Assembly (NCBI GenBank): GCA_963837055.1
Contig: CAWILU010000003.1
Location: forward strand, 199,524-263,523
From: an uncultured Acidobacteriota bacterium
GTDB taxonomy: Bacteria > Actinomycetota > Acidimicrobiia > Spongiisociales > ZC4RG35
DNA length: 64,000 nucleotides
Direction of reading: 5' to 3'
Shown here: positions 18,191 through 54,173 of the stretch, piece by piece
Layout of the letters: the number at the start of each line of letters is the position of its first letter
How positions within the stretch are numbered: position 1 is the first letter of the stretch
Notes under the pieces: model-generated
Seen by the model: only the letters and a program-made list of their open reading frames with translations
Database searches by the model: none
What the model was told of the DNA's origin: nothing
Program-made: the position numbers and the translations under genes

Positions 18191-19174
18191 AGCCGTATCG
18201 ACGGCAGGCTCGCTGACACAGGCGGGCAGAGGCGTACCGACCATCGGGACCCCGCATGCCAGGTACTCGTACATCTTGAGCGGAGTCACCGCCTCCGTCA
18301 TCTCGTCGACGATGAACGGAAGGATGCCGACTTTGAAGCCACGGACGAAGTCGGCGATCTGCTGGGACGGCTGGGCCGGAATGAGGGTCACATTGCCCTG
18401 TTGCCGCAGTTCTCGAGCCTGATCTCTCACTTCGGGGTCGACCGGGCCGACCAAGACGAAGTCGAGCTCAGGCCTCAGGCCGGCCACGGCGTCAAACAGC
18501 TCGAAGTCGAACCATGGCGCAAGGGCACCGTGATAGCCGACGACCGGACCCTCGGGGAGGGCGTCGGCGATGGGCCCCACAGAATCGAAGCGATCCACGT
18601 CGACCCCGTTCTCCACCAGCAGCATGTCGGGACGCTCCGCCCGGTGCCGGTCGACGAGGACCGGGTTGGATGCGATGACGACATCGGCGCTCTCCACCAG
18701 CGGCCCGTGATGATGTCTCACCGTCCGGGCTCGAGGCATTCCGTCCTCCATGGGCTCGTAGATGGCCAAGTCGTCCAGGAGGTCGTAGACCACGACCCGA
18801 TCGGCGTAGCGGTCGATGAGAGTGCGAGTGGGGGCGAAATGGGTGTAGACGATCACACCCGAGCGTGGCGTGTCCCGGATCGAGGGGACCAGGTGGATCC
18901 GTCCTTCCACCACACTCGACTCGCCCAGACGCGGGTCGACGAACCACACCTCATGACCGGCCGCGGCAAGGGCCTCGAGCAAATACTGAGGGCGCTGCTT
19001 CATCGTCTCCCAGCCCAGCCAGGTAGGGAGATAGACCACCGGCCGCAGAGATCCGGGCCGTGGGACCGGGCCGCGCGGGTAGTCGTACATGCGATCGCGC
19101 AGCTCCATTGCCCCTGGAAGCCGCTTTAGCGCTCGCTTCACCCGACCGGGAACGACGGAGACCACACGGTTCAT
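18029..19174 (-). CDS. GT-B (GT4/TuaH-like) glycosyltransferase
   Basis: KQRPQYLLEALAAAGHEVWFVDP...GYHGALAPWFDFEL...LPF...TPLKMYEYLACGVPMV. I chose the ATG at 19174 (MNRVVSV), 4 nt after the upstream stop. The ORF track extends to 19246. Confidence 0.75.
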   Translation of the reverse strand: MNRVVSVVPGRVKRALKRLPGAMELRDRMYDYPRGPVPRPGSLRPVVYLPTWLGWETMKQRPQYLLEALAAAGHEVWFVDPRLGESSVVEGRIHLVPSIRDTPRSGVIVYTHFAPTRTLIDRYADRVVVYDLLDDLAIYEPMEDGMPRARTVRHHHGPLVESADVVIASNPVLVDRHRAERPDMLLVENGVDVDRFDSVGPIADALPEGPVVGYHGALAPWFDFELFDAVAGLRPELDFVLVGPVDPEVRDQARELRQQGNVTLIPAQPSQQIADFVRGFKVGILPFIVDEMTEAVTPLKMYEYLACGVPMVGTPLPACVSEPAVDTASGPNDFAAAIDTALALTPGERLDLRRHALAAHWGRRVAPLLDRLGDRGQLLVG

Positions 19175-32406: not shown

Positions 32407-32967
32407 ATGCGGTACAAGGCCGGGCTGGAGACGAGGGAGAGGATTCTCGAGGCCACCAGGTCACTCGTCGCCGAGAACGGTCTGGATGGGACAACCATCA
32501 AAGCGATTTGCGATCAGGCAGGGGTCCTGCCCGGGTCCTTCTACAACCTCTTCGCCTCCAAAGAGCAGGCGATCCTCACCGTGGTCCGGGAGGCAATCGA
32601 CGCCGTCGACCCCGACCCCGCCCACCAGGGCACTGACACTCTCGAAGAGCTGGTCGCGGCGTATGTGCGGTTTCTCGAGGAGTCGCCCGCGCTTTCCCGG
32701 GTCTACATACGGATCGGGGTCTCCGGAGCCGGATCCAGCCCGGAGCTCAGCGGCCGGATGGTCAGACACCACGAAGCCCGGGTGGCTCGGTTCGCCGCGG
32801 CCATGAAACGACAGAGCCCCGAGCTCTCCGAGACTCTGGCCGAGAGACGCGCCGAGACCCTCGTCCTCGCCTTGAACGGCATCGCCCTCCATCGCATCAT
32901 CGACCCCCATTTCGACGTGGCCTGGCACGCCCGGGCGCTTCTCGAGGACGCCGCCGCGGTTTCCTGA
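32407..32967 (+). CDS. TetR family transcriptional regulator
   Basis: N-terminal HTH ILEATRSLVAENGLDGTTIKAICDQAGVLPGSFYNLFASKE. Divergent from fadE. Confidence 0.85.
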   Translation: MRYKAGLETRERILEATRSLVAENGLDGTTIKAICDQAGVLPGSFYNLFASKEQAILTVVREAIDAVDPDPAHQGTDTLEELVAAYVRFLEESPALSRVYIRIGVSGAGSSPELSGRMVRHHEARVARFAAAMKRQSPELSETLAERRAETLVLALNGIALHRIIDPHFDVAWHARALLEDAAAVS

Positions 32968-34967: not shown

Positions 34968-35876
34968 TTGCTCTACTCGATCATGACCGAGCCCCAGATG
35001 GGGGGCACATACGACGACATCCTCCGGGTGGCGCGTCTCGCCGAGTCGGAGGGCCTCTATTCGTTTGCCCGATCGGACCATCTCGCCTGGACGAGAGAAC
35101 CCGCCCCCGATGCAACCGACGCGTTCGCCACCCTGGCCGGCCTGGCCCGCGACACACAGAGGGTGCGCCTTTGCGTCCTGGTCACCCCGATCACGTTCCG
35201 GCACCCCGCCATCATCGCCAAGAACGCAGCGACCATCGACCAGATGTCGGGTGGCCGTTTCGATCTCGGCATCGGCACCGGCTGGAACCACTTCGAGCAC
35301 GAGGCGTTGGGCCTCCCATTCCCCGAATCGCAGGAGCGATGGGCCCGGCTCGAGGATGCCATCGACTACCTGGGGGCAGCGTTCGGACCAGGAGAGGGTC
35401 GACATCACGGCCCGTACTACCGCCTCGAGCTCGACGTGGAGCCCAAACCGACCGGCATCCGTCTGATCATCGGTGGGAGTGGCCCGAAACGGACCCCCAC
35501 TCTGGCCGGCACCAGAGCCGACGAGTACAACATCTTCATCTGCCCCGCCGAGGAAGCGAGAGCCAAGATCCAGGTGATGCGTAGCGCGGCCGGCGATCGC
35601 CATGTCGAGGCGACGATGATGGGGCCGGTGACCGCGGCCGGCTCCGACGCCGAGCTTGCCGACCTAGTCTACGCGGCCGCGGGGCGCCGCAATATCACGA
35701 ACGATGAGTTGATCAATCGATGGCACAAGGCGGGAAAGCTGTTCGGGACCCCGCCACAAGTGAGGGAGCAGATAGCTGCGCTCGAGGAGGCCGGGGTCGA
35801 ACGCCTCTATCTCCAATGGCTCGATCTCGGCGACTATGACGGCCTTGCCCGGATGGTGGAGCTGGTGCGGACGTGA
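34968..35876 (+). CDS. Luciferase-like monooxygenase (LLM class) oxidoreductase, paralogue of 32997-33911
   Basis: SGGRFDLGIGTGW...LIIGGSG. I chose TTG 34968 (AGGAAG 4 nt upstream) by alignment with the paralogue N-terminus. The ORF-track start at 34839 overlaps tyrA; ATG 34983 is an alternative. Confidence 0.7.
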   Translation: MLYSIMTEPQMGGTYDDILRVARLAESEGLYSFARSDHLAWTREPAPDATDAFATLAGLARDTQRVRLCVLVTPITFRHPAIIAKNAATIDQMSGGRFDLGIGTGWNHFEHEALGLPFPESQERWARLEDAIDYLGAAFGPGEGRHHGPYYRLELDVEPKPTGIRLIIGGSGPKRTPTLAGTRADEYNIFICPAEEARAKIQVMRSAAGDRHVEATMMGPVTAAGSDAELADLVYAAAGRRNITNDELINRWHKAGKLFGTPPQVREQIAALEEAGVERLYLQWLDLGDYDGLARMVELVRT

Positions 35877-36358
35877 GCGAGCTACCCGAGGCGAGTCGAC
35901 GATTGGCCTCATCCTTGGACGGATTCGAAATGGACACCCGCGTGTTCCCCGAAGGCACCAAGACCGCGGAGGATGCGGCGAGGGCCGTCGGCTGCCCGGT
36001 GTCGGCGATCGTCAAGTCGCTCGTATTCGTCTTGATCGGCCCCGATGCCTCCGAGGAACCCGTCGTCGCCCTCATCCCCGGTGATCTGCGTCTCGATACC
36101 GTGAAACTGGCGGATGCGGCCGGGGTCACAGGCTCGAGACGGGCGACACTCGACGAGGCTCGCGTAGCGACCGGCTACGCCGCGGGCGGGACGCCGCCCT
36201 TCGGCCATGCCACACCAGTGCGTGTCTTTGCCGACAATCGGCTGCGCCGCAACGACCCGGTGTGGGCGGCCGCCGGCACCCCGACCACGGTGTTCCCGAT
36301 CTCCATTGACGACCTCGACCGTCTTGCCCGGCCAGTCTGGGCAGACTTGAGCGAGTGA
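35873..36358 (+). CDS. YbaK/EbsC-type aminoacyl-tRNA editing (deacylase) domain protein
   Basis: 161 aa. AIVKSLVFV...GYAAGGTPPFGH motifs. Confidence 0.7.
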   Translation: MSELPEASRRLASSLDGFEMDTRVFPEGTKTAEDAARAVGCPVSAIVKSLVFVLIGPDASEEPVVALIPGDLRLDTVKLADAAGVTGSRRATLDEARVATGYAAGGTPPFGHATPVRVFADNRLRRNDPVWAAAGTPTTVFPISIDDLDRLARPVWADLSE

Positions 36359-36368
36359 TCACCCGTTC

Positions 36369-36400
36369 ATTTCCCCTACGGCAATAGTGCAAATACCATT
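36369..36400 (+). promoter_or_regulatory. Imperfect dyad + TACCAT (-10-like) immediately upstream of sufC-sufS-sufU (suf box 1)
   Basis: ATTTCCCCTACGGCAATAGTGCAAATACCATT. 21 of 25 positions are identical to 45284-45308. TACCAT ends 6 nt before the GTG start. Confidence 0.5.
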
Positions 36401-36405
36401 GGGGG

Positions 36406-37161
36406 GTGAGCGACACCACTCCCCTCCTTCAGATCGAAGGGCTGCGCGCCGGCGCCGGTGACATCGAGATCCTCAAAGGCGTCGACCTCACCGTCAACCA
36501 CGGGGAGATCCACGCCCTCATGGGTCCCAATGGCTCCGGCAAGTCCACCCTCGCTTCAGTGCTCATGGGGCATCCCGTCTACCGGGTGAACGCTGGTCGC
36601 ATCCTCTACAAGGGCGAAGACGTGACGGCGGCCACTGCCAGCCACCGCGGGGCTGCCGGCATGTTCCTCGCCTTTCAACACCCCGAGTCGATACCGGGCG
36701 TCTCGGTGATCCAGTTCCTCCGTCAGGCCCTGTCCAATCGCACCGGTGTCGACCTGACCGTGCTCGAGCTGCGTCTCAAGGTGATGGACACCATGAAAGA
36801 GCTGGGTATGGAGTCTTCGTTCGCCGATCGCTATCTCAACGAGGGTTTCTCGGGCGGTGAGAGGAAGCGGAACGAGGTGCTGCAGATGGCGGTGCTCAAA
36901 CCCGATCTGGCCATCATGGACGAGACCGACTCGGGGCTCGACATCGACGCCTTGCGCACCGTCGCCGACGGGGTCAACAAGCTCACCGGCCCCGATCGTG
37001 GGTTCCTCATCATCACCCACTATCAGCGTCTTCTCGACTACGTGACGCCGGATGTGGTGCACATCTTCATGGACGGGCGCATCCTCGAGAGCGGTGGCCC
37101 CGAGCTGGCGACCCGCCTCGAGCTCGAGGGATACGATTCATTCCGGACGGTGTTGACCTAG
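36406..37161 (+). CDS. sufC: Fe-S cluster assembly ATPase SufC (copy 1)
   Basis: GPNGSGKSTL, FSGGERKRNEVLQM, AIMDETDSGLDIDAL, ITHYQRLL. Confidence 0.9.
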   Translation: MSDTTPLLQIEGLRAGAGDIEILKGVDLTVNHGEIHALMGPNGSGKSTLASVLMGHPVYRVNAGRILYKGEDVTAATASHRGAAGMFLAFQHPESIPGVSVIQFLRQALSNRTGVDLTVLELRLKVMDTMKELGMESSFADRYLNEGFSGGERKRNEVLQMAVLKPDLAIMDETDSGLDIDALRTVADGVNKLTGPDRGFLIITHYQRLLDYVTPDVVHIFMDGRILESGGPELATRLELEGYDSFRTVLT

Positions 37162-37163
37162 AC

Positions 37164-38381
37164 GTGACAGATCTCTCGCATCTGAAAGCCGATTTCCCGG
37201 TCCTCTCCAACGGGGTCCACTTCCTCGATTCAGGTGCGTCGTCACAGAAGCCGATCCCGGTCCTCGAAGCGATGGATCGGTTCGCTCGCACCTCCTACGC
37301 CAACGTGCACCGTGGCGCATACAAGCTCTCTGTGGCATCCACCGACGCCTACGAAGCGGCACGGGCCCGGGTCGCCGCCTTCATTGGCAGCCCCGATCCT
37401 CGTCAGGTGATCTTCACCAGGGGCACCACCACCGCGCTCAACACCGTTGCCTTTGGCTGGGGGATGGAGCACCTCGGGCCCGGTGATCGGATCCTCGCCA
37501 CCGAGATCGAGCATCACGCCAACCTCGTGCCCTGGCAAATGGTCGCCAAGCGATCCGGCGCCAGCCTGGACCACGTGCCGATGACAGATGAGTTCAGGCT
37601 GGACCTCGCCGCCTACGAGCAAATGCTCGGGCCTGACGTCAAGATCGTCGCAGTGACCGGAATGTCGAACGTGCTCGGCATCATGCCCCCGATCCGGTTC
37701 ATCTCAGACCTCGCCCATCGGCACGGCGCTCGAGTCGTGGTGGATGCGGCACAGTTGGTGCCCCATTCGCCGGTCGACGTCGAGGCATTGGGGGCGGATT
37801 TCGTCGCCTTCTCGTCACACAAGATGCTGGGCCCGACCGGCATCGGAGTGCTTTGGGGCCGTATGGATGCCCTCGAGGACACCGAGCCTTTCGAGGGCGG
37901 CGGCGAGATGATCTCCGATGTCACTCTGCACGACGCGACCTGGGCGGAGATCCCCCACCGCTTCGAGGCGGGGACACCGCCGATCATCGAGGCCGTCGGA
38001 CTTCATGCCGCCATCGACTATCTCGACTCGATCGGTATGGACCAGGTGATCGATCACGACCGAGAGCTGACCGGTATCGCCCTGGATCGGCTCAGCGACG
38101 TCCCCGGTCTGCACGTCCAGGGCCCGACCAGCCTCGAAGACCGGGGTGGGGTCGTGTCGATGTCGATGGATGGGGTGCATGCCCATGACCTGGCCACCAT
38201 CCTCGATGAGGAAGGCGTGGCGGTCCGTTCCGGCCACCACTGCGCCAAGCCGTTGATGCGGCGTCTTGGGGTCGCTGCCACCGCCAGGGCGAGTTTCTAC
38301 GTCTACAACACCGAGGAGGACATCGATGCCTTGATCGGTGGCCTCCGTCGTGCCGGGGAGCTGTTCGGAGTCGGGTCGTGA
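37164..38381 (+). CDS. sufS: Cysteine desulfurase SufS (class II aminotransferase V)
   Basis: YANVHRG...FSSHKMLGPTGIGVL...RSGHHCA. Confidence 0.9.
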   Translation: MTDLSHLKADFPVLSNGVHFLDSGASSQKPIPVLEAMDRFARTSYANVHRGAYKLSVASTDAYEAARARVAAFIGSPDPRQVIFTRGTTTALNTVAFGWGMEHLGPGDRILATEIEHHANLVPWQMVAKRSGASLDHVPMTDEFRLDLAAYEQMLGPDVKIVAVTGMSNVLGIMPPIRFISDLAHRHGARVVVDAAQLVPHSPVDVEALGADFVAFSSHKMLGPTGIGVLWGRMDALEDTEPFEGGGEMISDVTLHDATWAEIPHRFEAGTPPIIEAVGLHAAIDYLDSIGMDQVIDHDRELTGIALDRLSDVPGLHVQGPTSLEDRGGVVSMSMDGVHAHDLATILDEEGVAVRSGHHCAKPLMRRLGVAATARASFYVYNTEEDIDALIGGLRRAGELFGVGS

Positions 38382-38818
38382 GTCTCGAGGATCTCTACCG
38401 CGAGGTGATCCTCGATCATTATCGAAGCCCCCGGAACCAGGGTCATCTGGAAAGCCCGGACGCCAAGGCAGAGGGGGTCAACCCCTTGTGCGGAGATGAG
38501 CTGACTATCGAGCTCAACTTCCAGGACGGCCGGGTCTCCGAGGTGGCCATCGACGGGCAAGGGTGCTCGATCAGCCAATCGTCCGCCTCGATGATGACCG
38601 AGGCGATCAAGGGAAAGACTCGTGAGGAGATCGAGACCATCACTCAGAAGTTCCGGGACATGATGTCCTTGGACGGCGAGACCGACATCGGGCTCGATCC
38701 GGAACGACCCGGCGCGGTGCTTGGGGACCTCGAGTCCCTCCAGGGCGTCCGCAAGTACCCGGTCCGGATCAAGTGCGCCAGCCTCGGCTGGAACGTGCTT
38801 GTCGATGCGCTGTCCTAA
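38378..38818 (+). CDS. sufU: SufU/IscU-like Fe-S scaffold / sulfurtransferase
   Basis: LYREVILDHYRSPRN...NPLCGDE...GCSISQSS...KCASLGW. Confidence 0.9.
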   Translation: MSLEDLYREVILDHYRSPRNQGHLESPDAKAEGVNPLCGDELTIELNFQDGRVSEVAIDGQGCSISQSSASMMTEAIKGKTREEIETITQKFRDMMSLDGETDIGLDPERPGAVLGDLESLQGVRKYPVRIKCASLGWNVLVDALS

Positions 38819-42885: not shown

Positions 42886-43686
42886 TCACACGTCGAAGGG
42901 GGTATCGGTGAAGAAATCGGCGGGGCGCCGGACCGGGTCGGTGCTGGTCTCCATCAAGCCAAGACGTTCCCGCACCGCCTTGTAACCGCCGGACTCGAGC
43001 TCTTCGGCAAGCTCGGCACCACCGGAGTCGACGATGCGACCATCGATCATGATGTGAATGCGATCGGGCGTGACGTAGCGCAGGATCCGGTTGTAGTGGG
43101 TGATCATCAGGACACCGAGCTCGGGGGACCGCATCTCCTCCACCGCCTGCGCCACCTGCTTCACGGCGTCGATGTCCAAACCGGAGTCGATCTCGTCGAG
43201 AAGGGCGACCCGGGGGCGGAGCACGGCCATCTGGAAGATCTCGGAACGCTTCTTCTCCCCACCGGACAGATCGTTGTTGAGCGCCCGATCGAGGAACCTG
43301 GTCATGTCGAAACGGGCTGCCTCCGCCTCGATCCGCTGTGACGCCTCCTCTTCGTCGACGCCCCGCTCCTCGGAGGCCTCGAGGAGGAATTCCCGCAAGC
43401 CGACCCCGGGGACCTCCGTTGGATACTGGAAGGACTGCAACAAGCCGAGACGGGCCCGCTCGTCGACTTCGAGCGAGAGCAAGTCCTGGCCCTCGAGAAA
43501 TGCCTCCCCGGTGACCCGGTAGCCGGCCTTGCCGGTGAGGACATGGCACAGCGTCGACTTCCCCGAGCCGTTGGGGCCCATCAGCGCGTGCACCTCGCCG
43601 TAGGGGAAGACCAGATCGAGCCCTTCGAGTATCTGCTTGCTGTCAACCGCCGCAGAGAGCCCGCGCACGTCGAGCGCCGTGGTCAT
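42886..43686 (-). CDS. sufC: Fe-S cluster assembly ATPase SufC (copy 2, with ~25-aa C-terminal extension)
   Basis: GPNGSGKSTL, LSGGEKKRSEIFQM, LLDEIDSGLDIDAV, ITHYNRIL. The ATG at 43686 overlaps the Rieske gene stop (ATGA). The ORF-track N-terminal extension is rejected. Confidence 0.9.
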   Translation of the reverse strand: MTTALDVRGLSAAVDSKQILEGLDLVFPYGEVHALMGPNGSGKSTLCHVLTGKAGYRVTGEAFLEGQDLLSLEVDERARLGLLQSFQYPTEVPGVGLREFLLEASEERGVDEEEASQRIEAEAARFDMTRFLDRALNNDLSGGEKKRSEIFQMAVLRPRVALLDEIDSGLDIDAVKQVAQAVEEMRSPELGVLMITHYNRILRYVTPDRIHIMIDGRIVDSGGAELAEELESGGYKAVRERLGLMETSTDPVRRPADFFTDTPFDV

Positions 43687-43994
43687 GAAGCCTCCCACAT
43701 GAGGTAGACGATGCCATCCTCGATCACGACTTCGTAGGTCGGCACCGGCTTGGTGGCGGGGAGTGAGAGGGGTTTGCCAGATCGCAGATCGAACTCTGAG
43801 CCGTGTCGGGGACATTCCACTTCGTGGTCGAAGACCTCGCCCTCGGCGAGGGACGCCTCGGCGTGCGAGCAGCGATCCCCGACCGCGAACACCTCATTGC
43901 CGATCCGGAACATGGCGATTTGGTCTTCGCCGAGAGTGACCCGGATGCCGCGATCCCGGGGAAGGGTGTCGATGGCGCCTATCTCGACCTTCAT
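43683..43994 (-). CDS. Rieske [2Fe-2S] ferredoxin-like protein (suf-operon associated)
   Basis: CSHAEASL...CPRHGSEF. Confidence 0.85.
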   Translation of the reverse strand: MKVEIGAIDTLPRDRGIRVTLGEDQIAMFRIGNEVFAVGDRCSHAEASLAEGEVFDHEVECPRHGSEFDLRSGKPLSLPATKPVPTYEVVIEDGIVYLMWEAS

Positions 43995-45253
43995 GCCACC
44001 CGTCCCTCCACCTGGGCGGTGACGAACCGGCGGAATACCTCATCCGATACCGGCTCTTCCAGGCCCTCGATCGGCAACCGGTCGATGACCTGCTGAAAGA
44101 AGCCACGGATCAACAGCCGTTCGGCCCGCTCCCGGTTCAGGCCGCGACTCATCAGGTAGTAGAGGTGATCGGACTCGAGAGGGCCGACCGATGAGGCATG
44201 CCCGCAAATCACGTCATTGCACAGGATCTCCAGGTTGGGCACCGAGTGGGCCTTTGCGTTCTCGGACAGCACCAGATTCCGATTCGTCTCGAAGGTCGAC
44301 GTTCGCGCCGCCTCCTTCTCGATCCTGAGGAGGCCGGTGAACACGCTCTGGGCATCGTCCTCCACGGCGCCCTTGAGGAAGACATCCGAGGTGGTGTTCC
44401 GGCCCTGATGATTTATCACCATCCGGTAGTCGAGGGTCTGATCGCCTTCGCCGAAGTAGAGGCCGACCACCTCCGACGACGCTCCGTCGCCGACCAGGCT
44501 CACACCGAGATCGAGCCTGGCCAATCTCGCACCCAGACCCACTTCTCCGATTCGCGAGGTGGCATCGCGACCAAGGACCGCTCGCTGATGCACCACCGTG
44601 GTCGCGGCGTGGTCGAAGCCTTGGACCGATAGAAAACGCAGCCTGGCACTGTCACCGACTTCGAGATCGATCCGAGGGACCACGAGCAGACGGGCGCCAT
44701 CGGCCGAGCGATAGGCGACCAAGACGCTTGCCTCGGCATTCTCGCCTACCTGGATGTGAAGGTGGGGAAACGAGGCGGTGCCTTCTGCTGACGCCTGGAT
44801 CTCGACCACGAGCGGGGTGTCCATCACCACGCCGGGCTTCACATCGACGTGAACGCCGTCTGTGGAGAAGGCCGCATGCGCCGCCGCGAGCTTGTTGAGG
44901 TCGACTGGGACCAGATCGGGGAACCCGGGATCTTCGGCGAGCTCAGTGAACCGGACGACATCGGCAATCTCCGATTCGACCTCGATGACGTGCCCATCGA
45001 CCATCAGGACATGGCCGGAACGCTCCGGAAGCGAGGCTACGAAGGGACCAGGCTCGAGGGCCGATCCGGGCCGGGCAACGGGCATGAGATCCTCGAATGA
45101 ATGGTCGTATTCGACATATCGCCAGTCCTCCTCGGCCCCGGTTGGCTCCTCCATGTCGGCGAAAACCTCATAGGCCGCCTCCATCCGTGACCGTCTCCAG
45201 ACAGGGGCAGAGGCGGCTGCCTGGGTGAGATTCTCTCGGTCGAACGCGGTCAA
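43991..45253 (-). CDS. sufD: Fe-S cluster assembly protein SufD
   Basis: 420 aa. beta-helix region and C-terminal VICGHASSVGPLESDHLYYLMSRGL. The size and N-terminus fit SufD rather than SufB. TTG start. Confidence 0.8.
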   Translation of the reverse strand: MTAFDRENLTQAAASAPVWRRSRMEAAYEVFADMEEPTGAEEDWRYVEYDHSFEDLMPVARPGSALEPGPFVASLPERSGHVLMVDGHVIEVESEIADVVRFTELAEDPGFPDLVPVDLNKLAAAHAAFSTDGVHVDVKPGVVMDTPLVVEIQASAEGTASFPHLHIQVGENAEASVLVAYRSADGARLLVVPRIDLEVGDSARLRFLSVQGFDHAATTVVHQRAVLGRDATSRIGEVGLGARLARLDLGVSLVGDGASSEVVGLYFGEGDQTLDYRMVINHQGRNTTSDVFLKGAVEDDAQSVFTGLLRIEKEAARTSTFETNRNLVLSENAKAHSVPNLEILCNDVICGHASSVGPLESDHLYYLMSRGLNRERAERLLIRGFFQQVIDRLPIEGLEEPVSDEVFRRFVTAQVEGRVA

Positions 45254-45277
45254 ACACTGCTCCGGACGGGTCGACAG

Positions 45278-45308
45278 AATGGTATTTCACCTATGGCGAT
45301 AGTGCGAA
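45278..45308 (-). promoter_or_regulatory. Imperfect dyad + TACCAT upstream of sufD-Rieske-sufC (suf box 2)
   Basis: Plus strand AATGGTATTTCACCTATGGCGATAGTGCGAA. In gene orientation it reads ...CACTATCGCCATAGGTGAAATACCATT, which shares AAATACCATT with box 1. Confidence 0.5.
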
Positions 45309-45368
45309 CTCTCCTTCCCCAGAAGCGAAGCGACGTTGGGGGAGGTGGCCCCAAGGGCAGAGGGTGTC

Positions 45369-46935: not shown

Positions 46936-47886
46936 TTGGGGAAGGCCATAAGGGCCAAAGATGCCAGACCCGAGCGGGGCTCGAGTCCCGCCGACACCGT
47001 CGGTCTCTATCTCGACGAAGTCTCTGCCCATTTGCTCCTCACCGCCGAGGACGAAGTCCATCTCTCCAGATCCATGGAGTTGGGCAAGAAGGCAAAGGCC
47101 ACCCTTGAAACCGGTGACTACGACAAGGCCGACCGGGCCAAGTTGATGCGTCTCGTCGCCGAGGGCGACGAGGCCAAGATGACCTTCATCAGGTCGAATC
47201 TCCGGCTGGTGATCTCGATCGCCAAGCGCTACACCGGGCGGGGCCTGGACCTCCTAGACCTCATCCAGGAAGGGAATCTCGGGCTGATCCGAGCTGTGGA
47301 GAAGTTCGACTGGCGCAAAGGCTTCAAATTCTCCACCTATGCCACTTGGTGGATCCGCCAGGCGATCACCCGTGGTCTGGGCAACAACGGCAAGACCATC
47401 CGCCTCCCCGTTCACATGGTCGACGTCGTCCGCACGGTCCAGGACACCCGACAAAGTCTGCATGACAAGTACCACCGGGCGCCAACGCTCGAGGAGATCT
47501 CGGAGGCATCGGGTCTGGACACCGAACGGGTCCTGGCCGCCCTCGAAGCCCCTGCCGAGACCGTTTCCCTGGACAGACCGGTGGGCGAGGACGGTGACGC
47601 CTCTCTCCAGGACTTCGTCGAGGACGCCACCGCCGTCGACCCAGAGGCCCGTGCCGCGGCGGCGTGGCGCCGGGACCGGCTCATCAAGGCCCTCCAGATC
47701 CTCGACCCGGAAGAGCAGCAGGTGTTGTGGCTGCGTTTCGGCCTGGATGGAGACGAACCCTGGACCTTGTCCGATGTCGGCAAGGTGATCAACTCCACCC
47801 GGGAGCGGGTGCGTCAGATCGAAGCCAGGGGGTTGGCCAAACTTCGCCACCCCAGCTGCGACATCGATCTGCAGGCCCTGCTCTAG
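46936..47886 (+). CDS. Sigma-70 family RNA polymerase sigma factor, group-2 (SigB-like)
   Basis: Regions 1.2-4.2: DTVGLYLDEV, LVISIAKRYTGRGLDLLDLIQEGNLGLIRAVEKFDWRKGFKFSTYATWWIRQAITR, TLEEIS, REQVLWLRFGL, RERVRQIEA. TTG start with AGGAAGG 7 nt upstream. Confidence 0.9.
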   Translation: MGKAIRAKDARPERGSSPADTVGLYLDEVSAHLLLTAEDEVHLSRSMELGKKAKATLETGDYDKADRAKLMRLVAEGDEAKMTFIRSNLRLVISIAKRYTGRGLDLLDLIQEGNLGLIRAVEKFDWRKGFKFSTYATWWIRQAITRGLGNNGKTIRLPVHMVDVVRTVQDTRQSLHDKYHRAPTLEEISEASGLDTERVLAALEAPAETVSLDRPVGEDGDASLQDFVEDATAVDPEARAAAAWRRDRLIKALQILDPEEQQVLWLRFGLDGDEPWTLSDVGKVINSTRERVRQIEARGLAKLRHPSCDIDLQALL

Positions 47887-48203: not shown

Positions 48204-49487
48204 TTACGACGTGCGGAGAGCGCGTTCCAGACGGGAGAAGCCCTCGTCTGCCTCCTCCTCGGTGATCGAGAGCGGAGGGGCCAGCCGCAGCGAGTTGCCG
48301 TAGAGACCGCCCTTTCCAATCAGGAGGCCCTCTTCCCTGGCGGCCTCCAGGACCGCGGAGGCAGCCTCCGGCGCCGGCGTCCCATCGGGCTTCACCAATT
48401 CGAGGCCGATCATCAGGCCCTTGCCCCGCACCTCGCCGATGATCTCTAGCTCCTCGGAAAGAGGCACCAGGTTCTGCATCAGCCGGTTCCCCACCTTGAG
48501 GGCGTTGGTCTGGAGGTCGTTGTCGAGCAGATAGTCGAGATTGGCCAGCGCTCCGGCCGTCGCCAGTGGGTTGCCACCGAAGGTGGATATGCCGAGAGCC
48601 GGATAGGAGTCCATCAACTCGGCAGAGGCCACCACCCCCCCGATGCTGAGCCCATTGCCTATCCCCTTGGCGAAGGTGAGCAGGTCGGGAACGATGTCAT
48701 GGGCCTGGTAGCCCCAGAAGTGCTCGCCGGTCCGTCCCCAACCGGTTTGGACCTCATCCGAGATGAAGAGGATCCCGTGCTCGTCGAGGACCTCTTTCAT
48801 CGCCCGAAAGAAGCCATCGGGCGGTGTCACGAAGCCTCCGACACCCTGTATCGGCTCGGCGATCATCACCGCCGGGCTCCCCGCCGCGGCGACGCCGAGC
48901 AGGTCTTTGAGATCGGCGACACATGCGGCGATGAACTCCTCGTCGGGCAGGTGCCCGAACGGGCTGCGCAGCTTGTAACCGCCGTGGACATAGGTCACCT
49001 GGAACGGGGAGAAACTGGTGCCGGACCAGGCCTTTTGACCGGTGACCGCGATCGCCGAGTGTGACTTGCCGTGATAGCTGCCCCGAATCGCCAGCACCTG
49101 GTTCGACTTCTGCTGGGTAGTGGCGATCATCAGGGCGGTGTCATTGGCCTCGGTACCCGAATTCGTGAAGAAGACTTTGGCGTCAGGGATCCCGGAGAGC
49201 CCGGCGACCCGCTCCGCAAGCTCGATCTGTGACTCGATCAGATAGAGCGTCGAGGTGTGGAGCATCTTGTCTGCCTGCGCCTTGATTGCCTGCACCACCT
49301 CGGGCACCTTGTAGCCCGACATCGTGACCAGGATCCCGCCGAAGAAATCGAGGTACCGATTTCCCTCAGCATCGGTGACCCACCGGCCATCACCGTCGAC
49401 GATGGCGATGGGCTGCTCGTAGTAGAGGGGTGCCCATCCGGGCAACACCGACTTGTGTCTTTCGTAGAGCTCGGCGTGCCGTCCCAT
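48204..49487 (-). CDS. Class III (omega) PLP aminotransferase
   Basis: TNSGTEANDTAL...EPIQGVGGF...DEVQTGWGRTG...TFAKGIGNG. Confidence 0.85.
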   Translation of the reverse strand: MGRHAELYERHKSVLPGWAPLYYEQPIAIVDGDGRWVTDAEGNRYLDFFGGILVTMSGYKVPEVVQAIKAQADKMLHTSTLYLIESQIELAERVAGLSGIPDAKVFFTNSGTEANDTALMIATTQQKSNQVLAIRGSYHGKSHSAIAVTGQKAWSGTSFSPFQVTYVHGGYKLRSPFGHLPDEEFIAACVADLKDLLGVAAAGSPAVMIAEPIQGVGGFVTPPDGFFRAMKEVLDEHGILFISDEVQTGWGRTGEHFWGYQAHDIVPDLLTFAKGIGNGLSIGGVVASAELMDSYPALGISTFGGNPLATAGALANLDYLLDNDLQTNALKVGNRLMQNLVPLSEELEIIGEVRGKGLMIGLELVKPDGTPAPEAASAVLEAAREEGLLIGKGGLYGNSLRLAPPLSITEEEADEGFSRLERALRTS

Positions 49488-49514
49488 CGTTCCTCCCTTG
49501 CTAGTGGCCCGTCA

Positions 49515-50240
49515 CTAGGCCTTCAAATATCGCATGAACAGCGAGCGATCGCCCATCAAGGCCCGGTCGAGCCTCATGTCGAGCGGTGGCTCGGCAGACG
49601 CTCCGTGAGCGATCCGGGCCGAATGGCCCGCGATCATGATGGGTGCGAGGGTCAAGTCGAGCTCATCGACCAAATGCTCGGCGACGAATTGGCCAACCAA
49701 CGTGGGCCCTCCTTCACAGAGGATCACTTTGGCCGCGGCCAGCCGGGCCAGAATCGCACCTGGGGTCACCTCGTCGAGGATCACGACGTCCGCCGCGTCC
49801 CCCAGCATCGCCAGCTTGGCAGGATCGGCCTGGGGCCCCGTTATGACCATGGGCCGATACTCGGGATCCGAGAACACCCGGGCTTCAGGATCGAAACTGA
49901 GCCGCCCGGAGACGATCGCCAGCAGCGGGACCTCGGTCAGCCCGGCGGCTACCCTCCTTTCCCGCCGTTCCTCATCGAGGCTGACGGGGTGATAATCCTC
50001 CGCCTCAACAGTCCCCGACCCGACCAGGACGATGTCGGGGACCGCCCGCAGAGCCTGGAACACAGCCTTGTCGTCGGGATCACCGAGACTCGAAGACTTC
50101 CCGTGGATCGCCGTCCCGCCGTCTGCGGAGCTGATGAAATTGACCAGCACCCAGGGTCGACTCTCGGCTTTGCGCTCGTCAGCCAGATAGAGACCGACGA
50201 GATCTTCGACCGCCTCGCCGGATTCGGACCTTCGCAGCAT
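49515..50240 (-). CDS. RibD C-terminal domain / dihydrofolate-reductase-like pyrimidine reductase family protein
   Basis: 241 aa. NFISSADGG...DKAVFQALRAVPDIVLVGSGTV...ILCEGGPTL. Confidence 0.65.
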   Translation of the reverse strand: MLRRSESGEAVEDLVGLYLADERKAESRPWVLVNFISSADGGTAIHGKSSSLGDPDDKAVFQALRAVPDIVLVGSGTVEAEDYHPVSLDEERRERRVAAGLTEVPLLAIVSGRLSFDPEARVFSDPEYRPMVITGPQADPAKLAMLGDAADVVILDEVTPGAILARLAAAKVILCEGGPTLVGQFVAEHLVDELDLTLAPIMIAGHSARIAHGASAEPPLDMRLDRALMGDRSLFMRYLKA

Positions 50241-50269
50241 CGGCGCAAGTTAGCGGCCCGGGCTCAGCC

Positions 50270-51661
50270 CTACTCCTCGACGATGAAGGCCGTCACCATC
50301 CCGAACATCCCCTCGTCCCTCTCCACATGGGTGAGGATGTGGCAGTGCCAGACCCAGACGCCCGGGTCCTCGAGTTGCATCAACACCGAATACCGCTCAC
50401 CCGGGGCGACGTTGAGTGTGTCGATCCAATAGGGGTGATCGAGTGGCACGCCGTCCTTGGCGTAGACCAGTTGACGGAATTGATGCTGGTGCATCGGGTG
50501 AATCTGGAGGCCCTCGTTGAAATAGTGGACCACCACCCAATCCCCAACCTTGCCGGTGTACGGCTGGGTGGCCGGGAACGACTTCCCGTTGAGGCTCAGA
50601 CCGATGACCCCTGCATCGTTCAGGACCATCGGGATCTCCTGGGAAACCACCAGGTCTTCTGGGATCTCGACGCCTGAGACGGTCTGGCCGACCGGCTTCG
50701 CTACCTCGCCGACCATGAACGTCCCGAACATCCCGTTGGGGACCTGCATCTGCCCGTGGTGATGGGCGTGGTACATCGCCACCATCGGCTCCCGGGTGGT
50801 GAACTCGTAGACGAAGCTCTCACCGGATTTGATGAGCGGCTGGGTGATAGGCGCGACCCCGTCCATGCTGTTGGGGACCTTCACCCCATGCCAGTGGACA
50901 TCGGTACCCATCGGAAGTTGGTTCTCCACGACCACTCGCACCTTGTCCCCTACCTCCACCTGGATCCTCGGCGCCGGCACCATCCCGTTGTACGTCCAGG
51001 CTTCGACCAACTTGCCCGGCTCGACTTCCCAGTCGGTGATCGCCGCCGTCAGGTGGAACTCCTTGGTGCCGTCGGCCAGAACGGTCGGCTCGAGCGTCTG
51101 ATTGCCCAGACCCTCCGTCTCGGCGGGGAAGGCAAGGATCGACTCCTCCATCAGCCGATCGAGCTCGGCCCAATCGGCTTCGGTGCCCTCGTGGTCGCCA
51201 TGGTCGCCCTCACCGGGGCCAACCGCCCCTTCGACCACGTTGATCGTTGCCTCCATCCCCGCCTCCCGATGACCCGCGATCGAGCAGAAGATCACATAGG
51301 AGCCCGGGGCGAGCTCGCCAACGTCCAATTGCGCCGATTCTCCGGCGGCGAGGTCCGGGGTAGTCGGTCCACCCTCCAGGGTCAGATTGTGGGCCGTCGA
51401 CCCATCATTCGTGGCCTGAAGCACGGTTGCCCCGGCCGGGATCTCGGACGAGCCGTCGATAGCGAACTCCGACAACGAGTACTCGATGATCTGTTGGTCA
51501 GCAGGCTCACCCTCCTCGCCGGTGGCGCCCGCCGGCTCGCCGCGGAAAGCGACGATCGCGGCCAGGACGGCCACCGCCACACCGAGCAACGCCAGGATTA
51601 TCAGGAAGCGATCGAAGGCGCGGGCAGGCGAGAGATCCCGCGTGTCATCACGTTCAGTCAT
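50270..51661 (-). CDS. Membrane-anchored cupredoxin domain fused to a two-domain multicopper oxidase
   Basis: N-terminal TM. Cupredoxin TAHNL...FCSIAGHREAGM. All four MCO Cu motifs are present: HWHGV, MYHAHHHG, HPMHQH and WHCHILTHVERDEGM. Confidence 0.8.
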   Translation of the reverse strand: MTERDDTRDLSPARAFDRFLIILALLGVAVAVLAAIVAFRGEPAGATGEEGEPADQQIIEYSLSEFAIDGSSEIPAGATVLQATNDGSTAHNLTLEGGPTTPDLAAGESAQLDVGELAPGSYVIFCSIAGHREAGMEATINVVEGAVGPGEGDHGDHEGTEADWAELDRLMEESILAFPAETEGLGNQTLEPTVLADGTKEFHLTAAITDWEVEPGKLVEAWTYNGMVPAPRIQVEVGDKVRVVVENQLPMGTDVHWHGVKVPNSMDGVAPITQPLIKSGESFVYEFTTREPMVAMYHAHHHGQMQVPNGMFGTFMVGEVAKPVGQTVSGVEIPEDLVVSQEIPMVLNDAGVIGLSLNGKSFPATQPYTGKVGDWVVVHYFNEGLQIHPMHQHQFRQLVYAKDGVPLDHPYWIDTLNVAPGERYSVLMQLEDPGVWVWHCHILTHVERDEGMFGMVTAFIVEE

Positions 51662-52613: not shown

Positions 52614-53071
52614 TGTTCCTCCACCATGAGGCCGACCTGCCTCTGAGCATGCCCGAGGTGGAGCATGGAATCGAGGCGCTTCGCTCCGATCTCGGCACCA
52701 TCGCCAACGTCGCATATCGGAAAGGGGAGGAATTGCGGGCCAAGGTCGGCCCCGGAACTGGAAGTGTCGCCAAGGAGGTGCGACTCGAAATCGGCTCTCC
52801 GGAAATCCACCGCACCGGGCTGATCTACCCGGTCAAGTGGTCAGCGGTGGGCTCGGAGGTGCTCTTCCCGCGCTTGACCGCCGACTTGATCGTCTCTCAT
52901 GTCGGTCACGATCGGACAAGGATCGTCCTGGACGGAACCTACCAGCCGCCGCTCGGCCAACTGGGCAAGGTCGTCGACCGAGTGCTGTTGCGACGGGTCG
53001 CCGAATCCACCGTCAAATCGTGGATGGACGGCCTGGCGGATTCGCTCACCTCGGGTCGGCCCGTCACCTGA
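52613..53071 (+). CDS. Hypothetical protein (possibly SRPBCC-like)
   Basis: 152-aa ORF, coding-type GC3, translationally coupled to the upstream gene. Confidence 0.45.
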   Translation: MFLHHEADLPLSMPEVEHGIEALRSDLGTIANVAYRKGEELRAKVGPGTGSVAKEVRLEIGSPEIHRTGLIYPVKWSAVGSEVLFPRLTADLIVSHVGHDRTRIVLDGTYQPPLGQLGKVVDRVLLRRVAESTVKSWMDGLADSLTSGRPVT

Positions 53072-54173
53072 TCGGCAGACGAACCTCTACGATCGTCCCC
53101 GAGCCCTCCGCGCTCTTCACCTGAACCTCTCCGCCAAGCCCCTCCGCACGGGCGCTCAAGTTGGCCAACCCCATCCCGGTTGCCGTTAGCGAAGGGTCGA
53201 ACCCGGCCCCGTTGTCGGAAACCACCACCTGAGCCGAATCGTCGTCGGCATCGACGACAACCTCGACTCGAGTGCCCCGGGAATGGCGCAGTGCGTTGCT
53301 CAGGGCCTCGGTGACGAATTTGACGACCTCGTCCTCGAGCTGCCCGGTGGGCAGGCGTGCGATGGCGATCTCCAGCGTCACCGACGCCGGATAGGCCGAG
53401 CCCATGCGTGAGACCAGCTCCTGGAGGCGGTCGTCGAGTTGACGTCTGTCGCCGCTCGTTCGCAGCTGGAAGATGTAGGCGCGCAGCGCCTCGACGACTT
53501 CGTCCAACCGGTCCACCGAAGCATCGATGGTCGCGGCGGCCGCAGAGTCGGTCACCCGCTCGGCGATCCCCTGCAGGGCAAGACCGACCGCAAACAGGTC
53601 TTGAATCACCGAGTCATGTAGGTCCCGGGCAATTCTCTCCCGATCCTCGCCGACCGCGATCGAGCGGAGACGCTCCTGAAGCCGTGCCGTGGTCACCGCC
53701 GAGCCGGCGATACGGCTCAACGCCTCGACGAGCACCACGTCGTCATCGGTGAACCCACCCTTTTTCTCGGTGAGATAGAGGTTGCCGAAAGCCTTTCCGC
53801 CCGCCGCCACCGGGACACCCAGGAAAGAGCGCATCGGCGGGTGGTTCGGCGGGAAGCCATAGGAGTCGGCGTGATCGGCGATCGAATCCAGGCGAATTGT
53901 TCGCTTCTCCCGTACCAACGTCCCCAGCACCCCCTTCCCGGTTGGTAGCGCTCCTATCCGTGCGGTTTGCTCCTCCGTGAATCCATCGTGGAGGAATTCG
54001 CTGAGCACCCCGTGCTCCCCGATGACGCCGAGAGCGGCGTATCTGGCTCCGGTTGCCGCCTTCGCCTCTGCCACCAGACCTCTGAGCACTTGCTCCAGAT
54101 CCCCGGCTCCAACCACGGCTGCTGCCGCTTCGATCAGCTCGGGTAACCGGCGCACACCTTTTGACTTGCCCAT
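53064..54173 (-). CDS. Cytoplasmic GAF-domain sensor histidine kinase (HisKA_3 / NarL-partner type)
   Basis: GAF: ARYAALGVI...FLGVPV...FGNLYLTEK. H-box RERIARDLHDSVIQDLF. HATPase NALRHS...DNGAGF...GMGLANL. Confidence 0.85.
   Translation of the reverse strand: MGKSKGVRRLPELIEAAAAVVGAGDLEQVLRGLVAEAKAATGARYAALGVIGEHGVLSEFLHDGFTEEQTARIGALPTGKGVLGTLVREKRTIRLDSIADHADSYGFPPNHPPMRSFLGVPVAAGGKAFGNLYLTEKKGGFTDDDVVLVEALSRIAGSAVTTARLQERLRSIAVGEDRERIARDLHDSVIQDLFAVGLALQGIAERVTDSAAAATIDASVDRLDEVVEALRAYIFQLRTSGDRRQLDDRLQELVSRMGSAYPASVTLEIAIARLPTGQLEDEVVKFVTEALSNALRHSRGTRVEVVVDADDDSAQVVVSDNGAGFDPSLTATGMGLANLSARAEGLGGEVQVKSAEGSGTIVEVRLPIR

Follow-up and report, generated by a model that had tools for sequence, protein, structure and literature searches.

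The window, i.e., the entire 64-kb stretch of DNA that was analyzed (64,000 nucleotides), has a G+C content of 60-66% and carries suf genes in two separated transcription units. On the + strand, sufC1, sufS, and sufU lie downstream of a ybaK-like deacylase gene, and the - strand unit is transcribed from sufD through a Rieske protein gene to sufC2. The suf genes had been called correctly in the initial annotation, as both sufC copies, sufS, sufU, and sufD scored above the curated NCBIfam cut-offs; the Rieske gene was called by Pfam, its NCBIfam matches being below cut-offs. Between the two units are xseB, xseA, fumC, and an M42 peptidase gene, in the same order as in relatives, and upstream of sufD are genes for a DUF4015 protein and a sigma-70 factor. 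The only SufBD-family protein in the window is of the SufD type, encoded beside two sufC paralogs; sufB, a sufR-like gene, and apbC were not found within the 64 kb. In a more distant lineage (L126), sufB occurs upstream of sufD with a DMT-type transporter gene between the two. The closest SufD homologs are annotated as Acidimicrobiia. A third suf cluster at 48204-51661 was considered and dismissed, as that region encodes an aminotransferase, a RibD-like protein, and a multicopper oxidase instead. The features discussed below are as follows.

35873-36358, + strand: ybaK-like deacylase gene (Pfam/NCBIfam)
36369-36394, no strand: box 1, 26-bp dyad and predicted operator, ATTTCCCCTAC-GGCA-ATAGTGCAAAT; 37.6 bits; seen in orthologous loci and GTDB genomes
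36394-36399, + strand: putative -10-like hexamer TACCAT of the sufC1 promoter, sharing the last base of box 1
36406-37161, + strand: sufC1, Fe-S assembly ATPase, GTG start (TIGR01978, 312.5 bits vs. cut-off of 212.8)
37164-38381, + strand: sufS, cysteine desulfurase (TIGR01979, 536.6 bits; Pfam Aminotran_5)
38378-38818, + strand: sufU, sulfur-transfer protein (TIGR01994, 154.1 bits)
42886-43686, - strand: sufC2, second SufC paralog, 266 aa, as in relatives (TIGR01978, 272.4 bits)
43683-43994, - strand: Rieske [2Fe-2S] protein gene within the suf operon (Pfam Rieske, 4.4e-18)
43991-45253, - strand: sufD, 420 aa, TTG start (TIGR01981, 247.4 bits vs. cut-off of 222; full-length 420-aa orthologs)
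45260-45263, - strand: Shine-Dalgarno sequence GGAG of sufD, 6 nt before the TTG, assigned by conservation
45279-45284, - strand: putative -10-like hexamer TACCAT of the sufD promoter, assigned by conservation
45284-45309, no strand: box 2, 26-bp dyad and predicted operator, ATTTCACCTAT-GGCG-ATAGTGCGAAC on the + strand; 35.5 bits

The initial annotation had described one shared dyad element before both units, ATTTCCCCTACGGCAATAGTGCAAATACCATT at 36369-36400 and AATGGTATTTCACCTATGGCGATAGTGCGAA at 45278-45308 of the + strand. Both sequences and their coordinates were exact, the second lying 24 nt upstream of the TTG codon of sufD (45253, - strand). Direct comparison of 36369-36393 with 45284-45308 bore out an identity of 21 of 25 positions (mismatches at positions 6, 11, 15, and 23), and the 10-mer AAATACCATT, said to face each downstream gene in the same way, indeed occurs once per strand with each copy directed at its gene. 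As delimited here, the 26-bp box 1 reads ATTTCCCCTACGGCAATAGTGCAAAT (36369-36394) and merges into TACCAT (36394-36399), which is followed by T, five G residues, and the GTG at 36406. On the + strand, the sequence of the 26-bp box 2 (45284-45309) is ATTTCACCTATGGCGATAGTGCGAAC, and its orientation relative to its gene is inverted when compared with box 1; box 2 continues on the - strand into TACCAT (45279-45284), GGAG (45260-45263), and the TTG start at 45253. The consensus of ~26 bp, ATTT[C/G]N[C/A]CTAY-N4-RTAG[G/T]N[G/C]AAAT, has the layout ATTT-N18-AAAT, i.e., two A/T tracts ~22 bp apart on either side of a dyad core. In box 1 these tracts read ATTT...AAAT over 26 bp, and in box 2 of the window the distal tract is degenerate (GAAC vs. 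GAATT in relatives). Position 26 was T in 86% of sites, even though it was outside of the search pattern.

When the window was searched with the pattern ATTTCNCCTANGGCNATAGTGCNAA, allowing three or fewer mismatches, box 1 and box 2 were the only matches, with 0.00 expected from 100 shuffles. A weight matrix built from ~130 related sites gave the two boxes 37.6 and 35.5 bits, the third-best site of the 64-kb window -3.3, and the best site across 20 shuffled windows 9.3. The search for further copies that had been proposed as a check was thereby run on the 64-kb window and returned two copies only, both directly before suf transcription units. The match between the two boxes is beyond chance. 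An inverted-repeat finder with a 6-nt seed did not pick up the dyad because its exact arms are too short. Base pairing of the inverted repeat at the RNA level is conceivable, but folding of the boxes was no better than that of shuffled sequences (z = +0.41 and -0.12) and an RNA element was rejected; in addition, the box of sufC1 lies upstream of both the only possible start codon and the predicted transcription start. With zero chance matches expected and the only two copies in the window both at suf promoters, we find it scarcely credible that the boxes represent a chance similarity, a dispersed repeat, or a hairpin in the transcript.

Conservation and distribution of the box

Orthologous loci from six lineages (L001-L012) were fetched by way of the SufD protein (66-85% identical) and hence independently of the motif. 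Synteny was kept in these loci. A look at the suf promoters of relatives had also been proposed as a check, and it turned out in favor of the boxes, with box 2 present in 6/6 lineages and box 1 in 4/4 of those whose contig reached that far (loci L001, L004, L009, and L010). Across the SufD-fetched loci the arms ATTTC[A/C]CCTAY and RTAGTGCNAA were conserved and the central 4 nt varied freely (GGCA, GGGA, ACCC, CGGC, GCCC, CTGG, etc.). Since the arms are conserved while the central four bases change, the box has the character of a site for a dimeric protein.

In silico analysis was extended to GTDB, where one genome per species (185,579 species genomes) was scanned with the exact pattern ATTTSNCCTAYNNNNRTAGTGCNAA, yielding at least 118 loci. 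Among the matches listed, almost all were labeled as Acidimicrobiia or unclassified Actinomycetota, and about 110 of the 118 were directly upstream of a sufC-like gene or of sufD in Acidimicrobiia; the sufC-like genes behind the box in these listed matches continue into sufS-sufU. Closest to the window among the matches listed were L060 and L087, whose sufC1 shows 94% identity. Box 1 is therefore found upstream of sufC in many GTDB genomes, and box 2 is kept upstream of sufD not only in L001-L012 but in at least 26 loci of the scan. The eight other matches listed comprised six beside Fe or Fe-S genes and two that looked like chance (a Methanoregula contig and a contig with 45% G+C). In the same scan, the box was found at apbC/mrp together with a SufR-like gene (L058), at an orthologous Fe3+-type ABC binding-protein gene (L019, L052, and L062), in front of an FTR1-family iron permease gene transcribed divergently from gltB (L091, 6012-6036), and upstream of an unannotated lipoprotein gene (L055, 3680-3704). 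The last two sites suggest that in certain lineages the regulon has expanded to include iron uptake.

The scan pattern fixed an asymmetric pair of arms, which biases the matrix at the positions that the pattern specified. Symmetric variants of the box do exist among sites defined by their context, e.g., AATTGCACTAT-CACG-GTAGTGCAAATT in L216 and ATTTCTCCTAT-GCGG-GTAGGATTAAT before sufD in L126. Several contigs labeled as Bifidobacterium breve, as a Bifidobacterium sp. MAG, or as Acidobacteriota (L016, L026, L031, L059, L060, L063, L066, L067, L073, and L083) carry an Acidimicrobiia-type box together with sufC or sufD and are probably mis-binned or mislabeled. A box-like palindrome, GTTTTACACTACCCGCGTAGTGTTTTCA, was also seen at positions 49-76 of L217 and L218, between a glycosyltransferase/LPG-synthase gene and an RmlD-like gene, and may represent one more site or a coincidence.

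Promoters and start codons at the boxes

According to the initial annotation, TACCAT was a plausible -10 hexamer that would leave sufC1 leaderless. Conservation is consistent with the hexamer being a -10 element, as all close relatives have TACCAT or TAGCAT 6-7 nt ahead of the conserved GTG, and a leaderless sufC1 is likewise suggested by the lack of a Shine-Dalgarno sequence, the 6-7 nt that separate hexamer and GTG, and an in-frame TAG in the box. No start codon other than the GTG at 36406 occurs between that TAG (36385-36387) and conserved residue 8, and an earlier start of sufC1 is excluded because the TAG lies in frame inside the box. The sufC1 mRNA is probably leaderless, with its 5′ end at or beside the GTG. 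Automatic gene calls in two of the orthologous loci (L001, 18787-18832; L004, 18670-18711) extend sufC1 by 14 codons through the box, giving 265 instead of 251 aa; given the in-frame TAG inside the box of the window, this extension is an artifact. The sufC1 intergenic region is 47 nt long, 32 of which are taken up by box and -10 hexamer, so that no space is left for a second operator; in the window, 10 nt separate the stop codon of ybaK from box 1. A single lineage (L001, ~18840-18890) has an insertion between the ybaK stop codon and box 1, a perfect hairpin rich in G+C (GGCGCGCCGATCCCGG...CCGGGATCGGCGCGCC) that resembles a terminator or a small repeat element.

On the sufD side, 38 sites were compared (the window, L001-L012, and GTDB-scan loci). 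The box is immediately followed by TACCAT, TACGAT, or TAGCAT in 38/38, the GTDB-scan part being the matches listed, and by (C/T)GGAG, 6-9 nt, and a TTG codon in 37/38 of the sites listed, the exception (L110) having CTG. The 23 N-terminal residues of SufD are conserved as well and, together with the conserved Shine-Dalgarno/TTG arrangement, they show that the 420-aa TTG form of sufD is the right one. By the -10 assignment, the sufD mRNA would have a short leader of ~20 nt with the GGAG Shine-Dalgarno sequence.

A scan for E. coli-type consensus promoters and terminators found nothing at either box. Because the -35 elements of actinobacterial promoters are weak, this negative result says little, and in the absence of a consensus match the -10 assignment rests on conservation and spacing. 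The boxes could then be seen as mere promoters (-35/-10, for a housekeeping or an alternative sigma factor) common to two suf operons, with no dedicated regulator. The proximal arm does merge into the -10-like TACCAT, and, at a spacing of 17-18 nt, the distal arm offers TTCCCC or TTCGCA as a possible -35 element. Such an element would be directional, however, and at sufC the box occurred in both orientations (72 vs. 15 among the matches listed), either on the -10, as in the window, or 14-16 nt upstream of a separate TAGACT, TAAACT, or TAGAAT hexamer that precedes a leaderless ATG. The two orientations and the several distances to the start codon argue for a transcription-factor site rather than a directional promoter element. 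With the variable center of the dyad, the silence of the consensus promoter scan at the boxes, and a genome-wide restriction of the box to suf and Fe genes among the matches listed, we regard a promoter with no regulator of its own as highly improbable. The shared operator overlapping the promoter that had been proposed at the outset fits these observations better; both boxes would cover the -35 to -10 region of their suf promoters, an arrangement kept in relatives. That the boxes are a real regulatory protein site of the suf regulon is, in our judgment, hardly in doubt.

Candidate binding proteins

The regulator encoded beside the box in L058 consists of HTH_20 and MetOD1 (Pfam). Against the TIGR02702 SufR model it scored 32.9 bits, compared with a cut-off of 178.8 (E = 5e-8, residues 43-213), and by this measure it is a distant homolog of SufR_cyano and not an equivalog. 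Homologs of this SufR-like protein are very common in Acidimicrobiia, and their genes are not found beside suf but are divergent from apbC/mrp in 62/64 cases. In L058 and L131-135 the box overlaps the -10 hexamer (TAGAAT, TACAAT, or TATAAT) of the SufR-like gene, with the start codon 6-7 nt later, and the intergenic region between apbC and the sufR-like gene carries the box in four protein-fetched lineages. A further 80 SufR-like loci were fetched by protein from metagenomes, 75 of which had enough upstream sequence. The core CTAY-N4-RTAG was present on the -10 of the SufR-like gene in 59/75 of these Acidimicrobiia loci, compared with a chance expectation of ~1% in 150 nt. The consensus at SufR-like genes reads AATT(T/A)(G/C)CACTAY-N4-RTAGGTA(G/C/T)AATACC, with the start codon a few bases on, suggesting that the SufR-like gene is leaderless and has the box on its -10. 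Another 13/75 of the SufR-like genes had no box. These form a clade (L154, L159, L160, L163, L175, L180, L196, L198-L200, L203, L206, and L211) with a conserved (G/C)G(T/G)TAGGCTAA(T/C), mostly GTTAGGCTAATCGCGTG, at the leaderless start; GTTAGGCTAATCGCGTG resembles the center of the canonical iron box.

An alignment of 16 SufR-like proteins showed an invariant HPNVARHH helix, a GAGRPSKRY AT-hook, and invariant C190, C203, D206, and C238, the distance from C190 to C203 being 13 and D206 being at +3. The features that define SufR by cryo-EM are helix 3 with an R/H motif, a wing with a GRP AT-hook, and cluster ligands consisting of a Cys-X12-Cys pair, an acidic residue at +3, and one more Cys (bioRxiv 10.64898/2025.12.26.696629), and all of these are present in the SufR-like protein. 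Its AT-hook reads AGRP, as opposed to the RGRP called invariant in actinobacterial SufR. Neither a single-sequence nor a profile search of solved structures returned a SufR, only generic wHTH matches, and the AlphaFold2 model built on the alignment of 16 sequences was unusable (pLDDT of 49.6).

These results suggest, at a probability of about 0.78, that the boxes are the operator of a SufR-like (COG2345) [4Fe-4S] transcription factor conserved across the class Acidimicrobiia. The earlier proposal that one Fe-S-sensing repressor serves both halves of the suf system gains from the box at the promoter of the SufR-like gene itself in most Acidimicrobiia loci (59/75). As no SufR-like gene lies in the window, we infer its presence in this genome from relatives. 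Three regulatory genes that do lie in the window, for a TetR protein (32407-32967), a sigma-70 factor (46936-47886), and a GAF histidine kinase (53064-54173), were considered as the regulator and set aside, having no link to the motif.

The same box could be bound by a different, non-SufR regulator (e.g., an Rrf2/IscR-like protein or another Fe-S/redox sensor), with the sufR-like and apbC genes as mere members of its regulon. A dyad of 26 bp is typical of Rrf2-family sites too, apbC would be a natural member of an Fe-S regulon under any regulator, the SufR-like protein was assigned through guilt by association only, and a regulator other than SufR might conceivably act on apbC through the box between apbC and sufR. 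We nevertheless think such a regulator unlikely. Across ~200 box-bearing loci, no Rrf2 or other regulator gene lies beside the box except sufR-like and dtxR-like ones, and an Rrf2 gene in particular was not found among the annotated genes adjoining the boxes. Further, the box sits on the -10 of the sufR-like gene at a fixed distance from its start codon, suf promoters have no second conserved element that SufR might use, and the geometry of the A/T tracts is what SufR AT-hooks read.

The dtxR-like genes raise the alternative that the box is an "iron box" for an Acidimicrobiia metalloregulator of the DtxR/IdeR family, which would repress suf and iron uptake at high iron. L052 and L062 have the box flanked by a dtxR-like gene and a gene for a Fe3+-type ABC binding protein, other matches are at iron-uptake genes such as that of the FTR1 permease, and the recognition helix of the DtxR-like protein, SRASVSEM, presumably differs from that of canonical DtxR, a point that we count in favor of this alternative. 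The distribution of the box among such loci speaks against it, however. The box is present at dtxR-like genes whose neighbor is a divergent binding-protein operon (L216 and L219), is absent from a dtxR-like gene lacking that neighbor (L217/L218), and is present at a binding-protein gene that has no dtxR beside it (L019). Since the box follows the binding-protein operon with or without dtxR, it belongs to the transporter promoter and not to dtxR. Moreover, the box does not match the 19-bp iron-box palindrome TTAGGTTAGGCTAACCTAA because its half-sites are everted, and a separate palindrome lies beside the dtxR start, either TGTCAGG-N4-CCTGACA (L062 and L219) or an iron-box-like sequence (L052 and L216). 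Based on the comparison of loci with and without a neighboring binding-protein operon, a DtxR-like binder was rejected as the main explanation, and we rate it as very unlikely. The second palindrome is located at ~3241-3262 in L062, ~2948-2966 in L219, ~6275-6293 in L052, and ~2994-3010 in L216, its iron-box-like forms being TTAGGTGTGGCTAAC and TTAGGTAGGGCTGACAGAA. This palindrome is probably the DtxR-like protein's own operator, and the promoter of the Fe3+-type ABC transporter seems to be under dual control.

For the SufR-like factor, a mechanism can be proposed from the position of the boxes. Each box would cover about -36 to -11, with the gene-proximal arm merging with the TACCAT -10 hexamer, and a dimer bound there would block RNA polymerase at both promoters, i.e., those of sufC1-sufS-sufU and sufD-Rieske-sufC2, because the box covers the promoter into the -10. 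The SufR proteins of Synechocystis, Streptomyces, and M. tuberculosis bind DNA in their [4Fe-4S] form, and loss of the cluster leads to de-repression. By analogy with these characterized proteins, the cluster-bound (holo) form of the SufR-like factor would bind when the Fe-S supply is sufficient, and loss of or damage to the cluster (through iron or sulfur limitation, oxidants, or NO) would release it from the boxes, whereupon both of the separated suf transcription units would be de-repressed together. As in other SufR systems, the SufR-like gene would be autoregulated via its own box, and in relatives the same control may extend to the promoter region that the regulator shares with the divergent apbC/mrp and to some iron-uptake genes, all of which carry the box. 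For box 1 and box 2 themselves, we infer which protein binds, in which direction it acts, and to what signal it responds.

A bolder and more tentative proposal is that the SufR-like sensor, unlinked from suf and paired with apbC, is the master regulator of a dispersed regulon and acts through a highly sequence-specific 26-bp operator. The regulon would, equally tentatively, consist of two or three suf promoters, apbC, the regulator's own gene, and, in some lineages, Fe3+ ABC and FTR1 iron-uptake genes, with the Fe3+ ABC operon having in addition the separate palindrome next to the divergent dtxR-like gene. If so, the core would be read base by base, unlike in the recent model for M. tuberculosis, where the flanking A/T tracts are what SufR mainly recognizes and core changes are tolerated, and iron acquisition would be under Fe-S-cluster sensing in an actinobacterial class. 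The boxes at the Fe3+ ABC and FTR1 genes are a hint that Fe-S status feeds into iron uptake in Acidimicrobiia.

Comparison with known systems

Soils, lakes, oceans, and wastewater harbor abundant Acidimicrobiia, which are rarely cultured, and to our knowledge no regulon has been defined experimentally in this class. A literature search returned no paper naming both SufR and Acidimicrobiia, and the sequence of the box was not found described. SufR-type control of suf is already known; what appears to be new is the site sequence of the Acidimicrobiia box. A class-wide operator that can be searched by weight matrix, together with a named candidate regulator of Fe-S biogenesis, would be of use in the annotation of MAGs, and the window itself offers an example of how a split suf system might be coordinated, with one copy of the operator per transcription unit.

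Regulation of suf by proteins of a different family provides one point of comparison. Both IscR, an Rrf2 protein with a type-2 site at the suf promoter of E. coli, and the rhizobial RirA sense Fe-S clusters and use dyad sites of ~25 bp, and RirA couples iron uptake to cluster status as well. At the suf promoter it is the apo form of IscR that activates, whereas the position of the box here points to repression instead. These proteins are not of the SufR family, and no Rrf2 gene was found near any box. A closer parallel is ArnR of Corynebacterium glutamicum, a COG2345 paralog and SufR-like [4Fe-4S] repressor that occupies two A/T-rich tracts over ~30 bp; its targets are narKGHJI and hmp and not suf.

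The SufR proteins of Synechocystis, Synechococcus, and Streptomyces avermitilis belong to the same family as the candidate, and the holo-repressor logic that they apply to suf promoters is the one predicted here. The AT-hook of cyanobacterial SufR also has a non-polar residue before GRP, as in the AGRP of the SufR-like protein. Gene arrangements differ, with sufR divergent from sufBCDS in cyanobacteria, at the head of the operon in Streptomyces, and paired with apbC in Acidimicrobiia. As had been noted at the outset, the box does not match the known SufR site CAAC-N6-GTTG; its core, C[A/C]CCTAY-N4-RTAGTGC, matches neither that sequence (Synechocystis and S. avermitilis) nor the ACACT-N5-TGTGA of M. 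tuberculosis. This mismatch leaves SufR possible, because the footprinted M. tuberculosis site departs from CAAC-N6-GTTG too and has the same overall layout as the box.

Indeed, the closest resemblance is to M. tuberculosis. Its SufR (Rv1460) is of the actinobacterial COG2345 family, as is the protein for which a role as [4Fe-4S] suf repressor is predicted here, and its footprint spans 27 bp, ATTTTGTCACACT-N5-TGTGAAAAT, with terminal ATTTT/AAAAT (bioRxiv 10.1101/2020.08.10.245365). Both operators are thus 26-27 bp long, carry terminal ATTT(T) and (A)AAAT ~22 bp apart, and lie on the promoter, and the half-site GTG(N)AAAT is common to box 1 and the M. tuberculosis operator. SufR of M. tuberculosis is autoregulated, and the SufR-like genes of Acidimicrobiia carry the box at their own promoter. 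M. tuberculosis has one operator and a single suf operon, sufRBDCSUT, headed by sufR, whereas in Acidimicrobiia the regulator is unlinked from suf and divergent from apbC, with the box at three or more separate promoters. The AT-hook is AGRP in the SufR-like proteins and RGRP in M. tuberculosis SufR, and the core CCTAY-N4-RTAGTG is strongly conserved in Acidimicrobiia, in contrast to the M. tuberculosis core, which is reported to tolerate mutation. SufR recognizes the A/T tracts flanking the palindrome via its AT-hooks (bioRxiv 10.64898/2025.12.26.696629). As the core differs here while the A/T geometry is the same, this "shape reading" model becomes testable on natural variation. Taken as a whole, the putative Acidimicrobiia system would depart from known SufR systems in four respects, namely the core of the site, a regulator gene that lies apart from suf and forms a pair with apbC, a split suf system served by several operators, and boxes at iron-uptake genes in some lineages, and its box would be a third well-sampled operator type for the SufR family, with the same A/T-tract geometry and a different, strongly conserved core.
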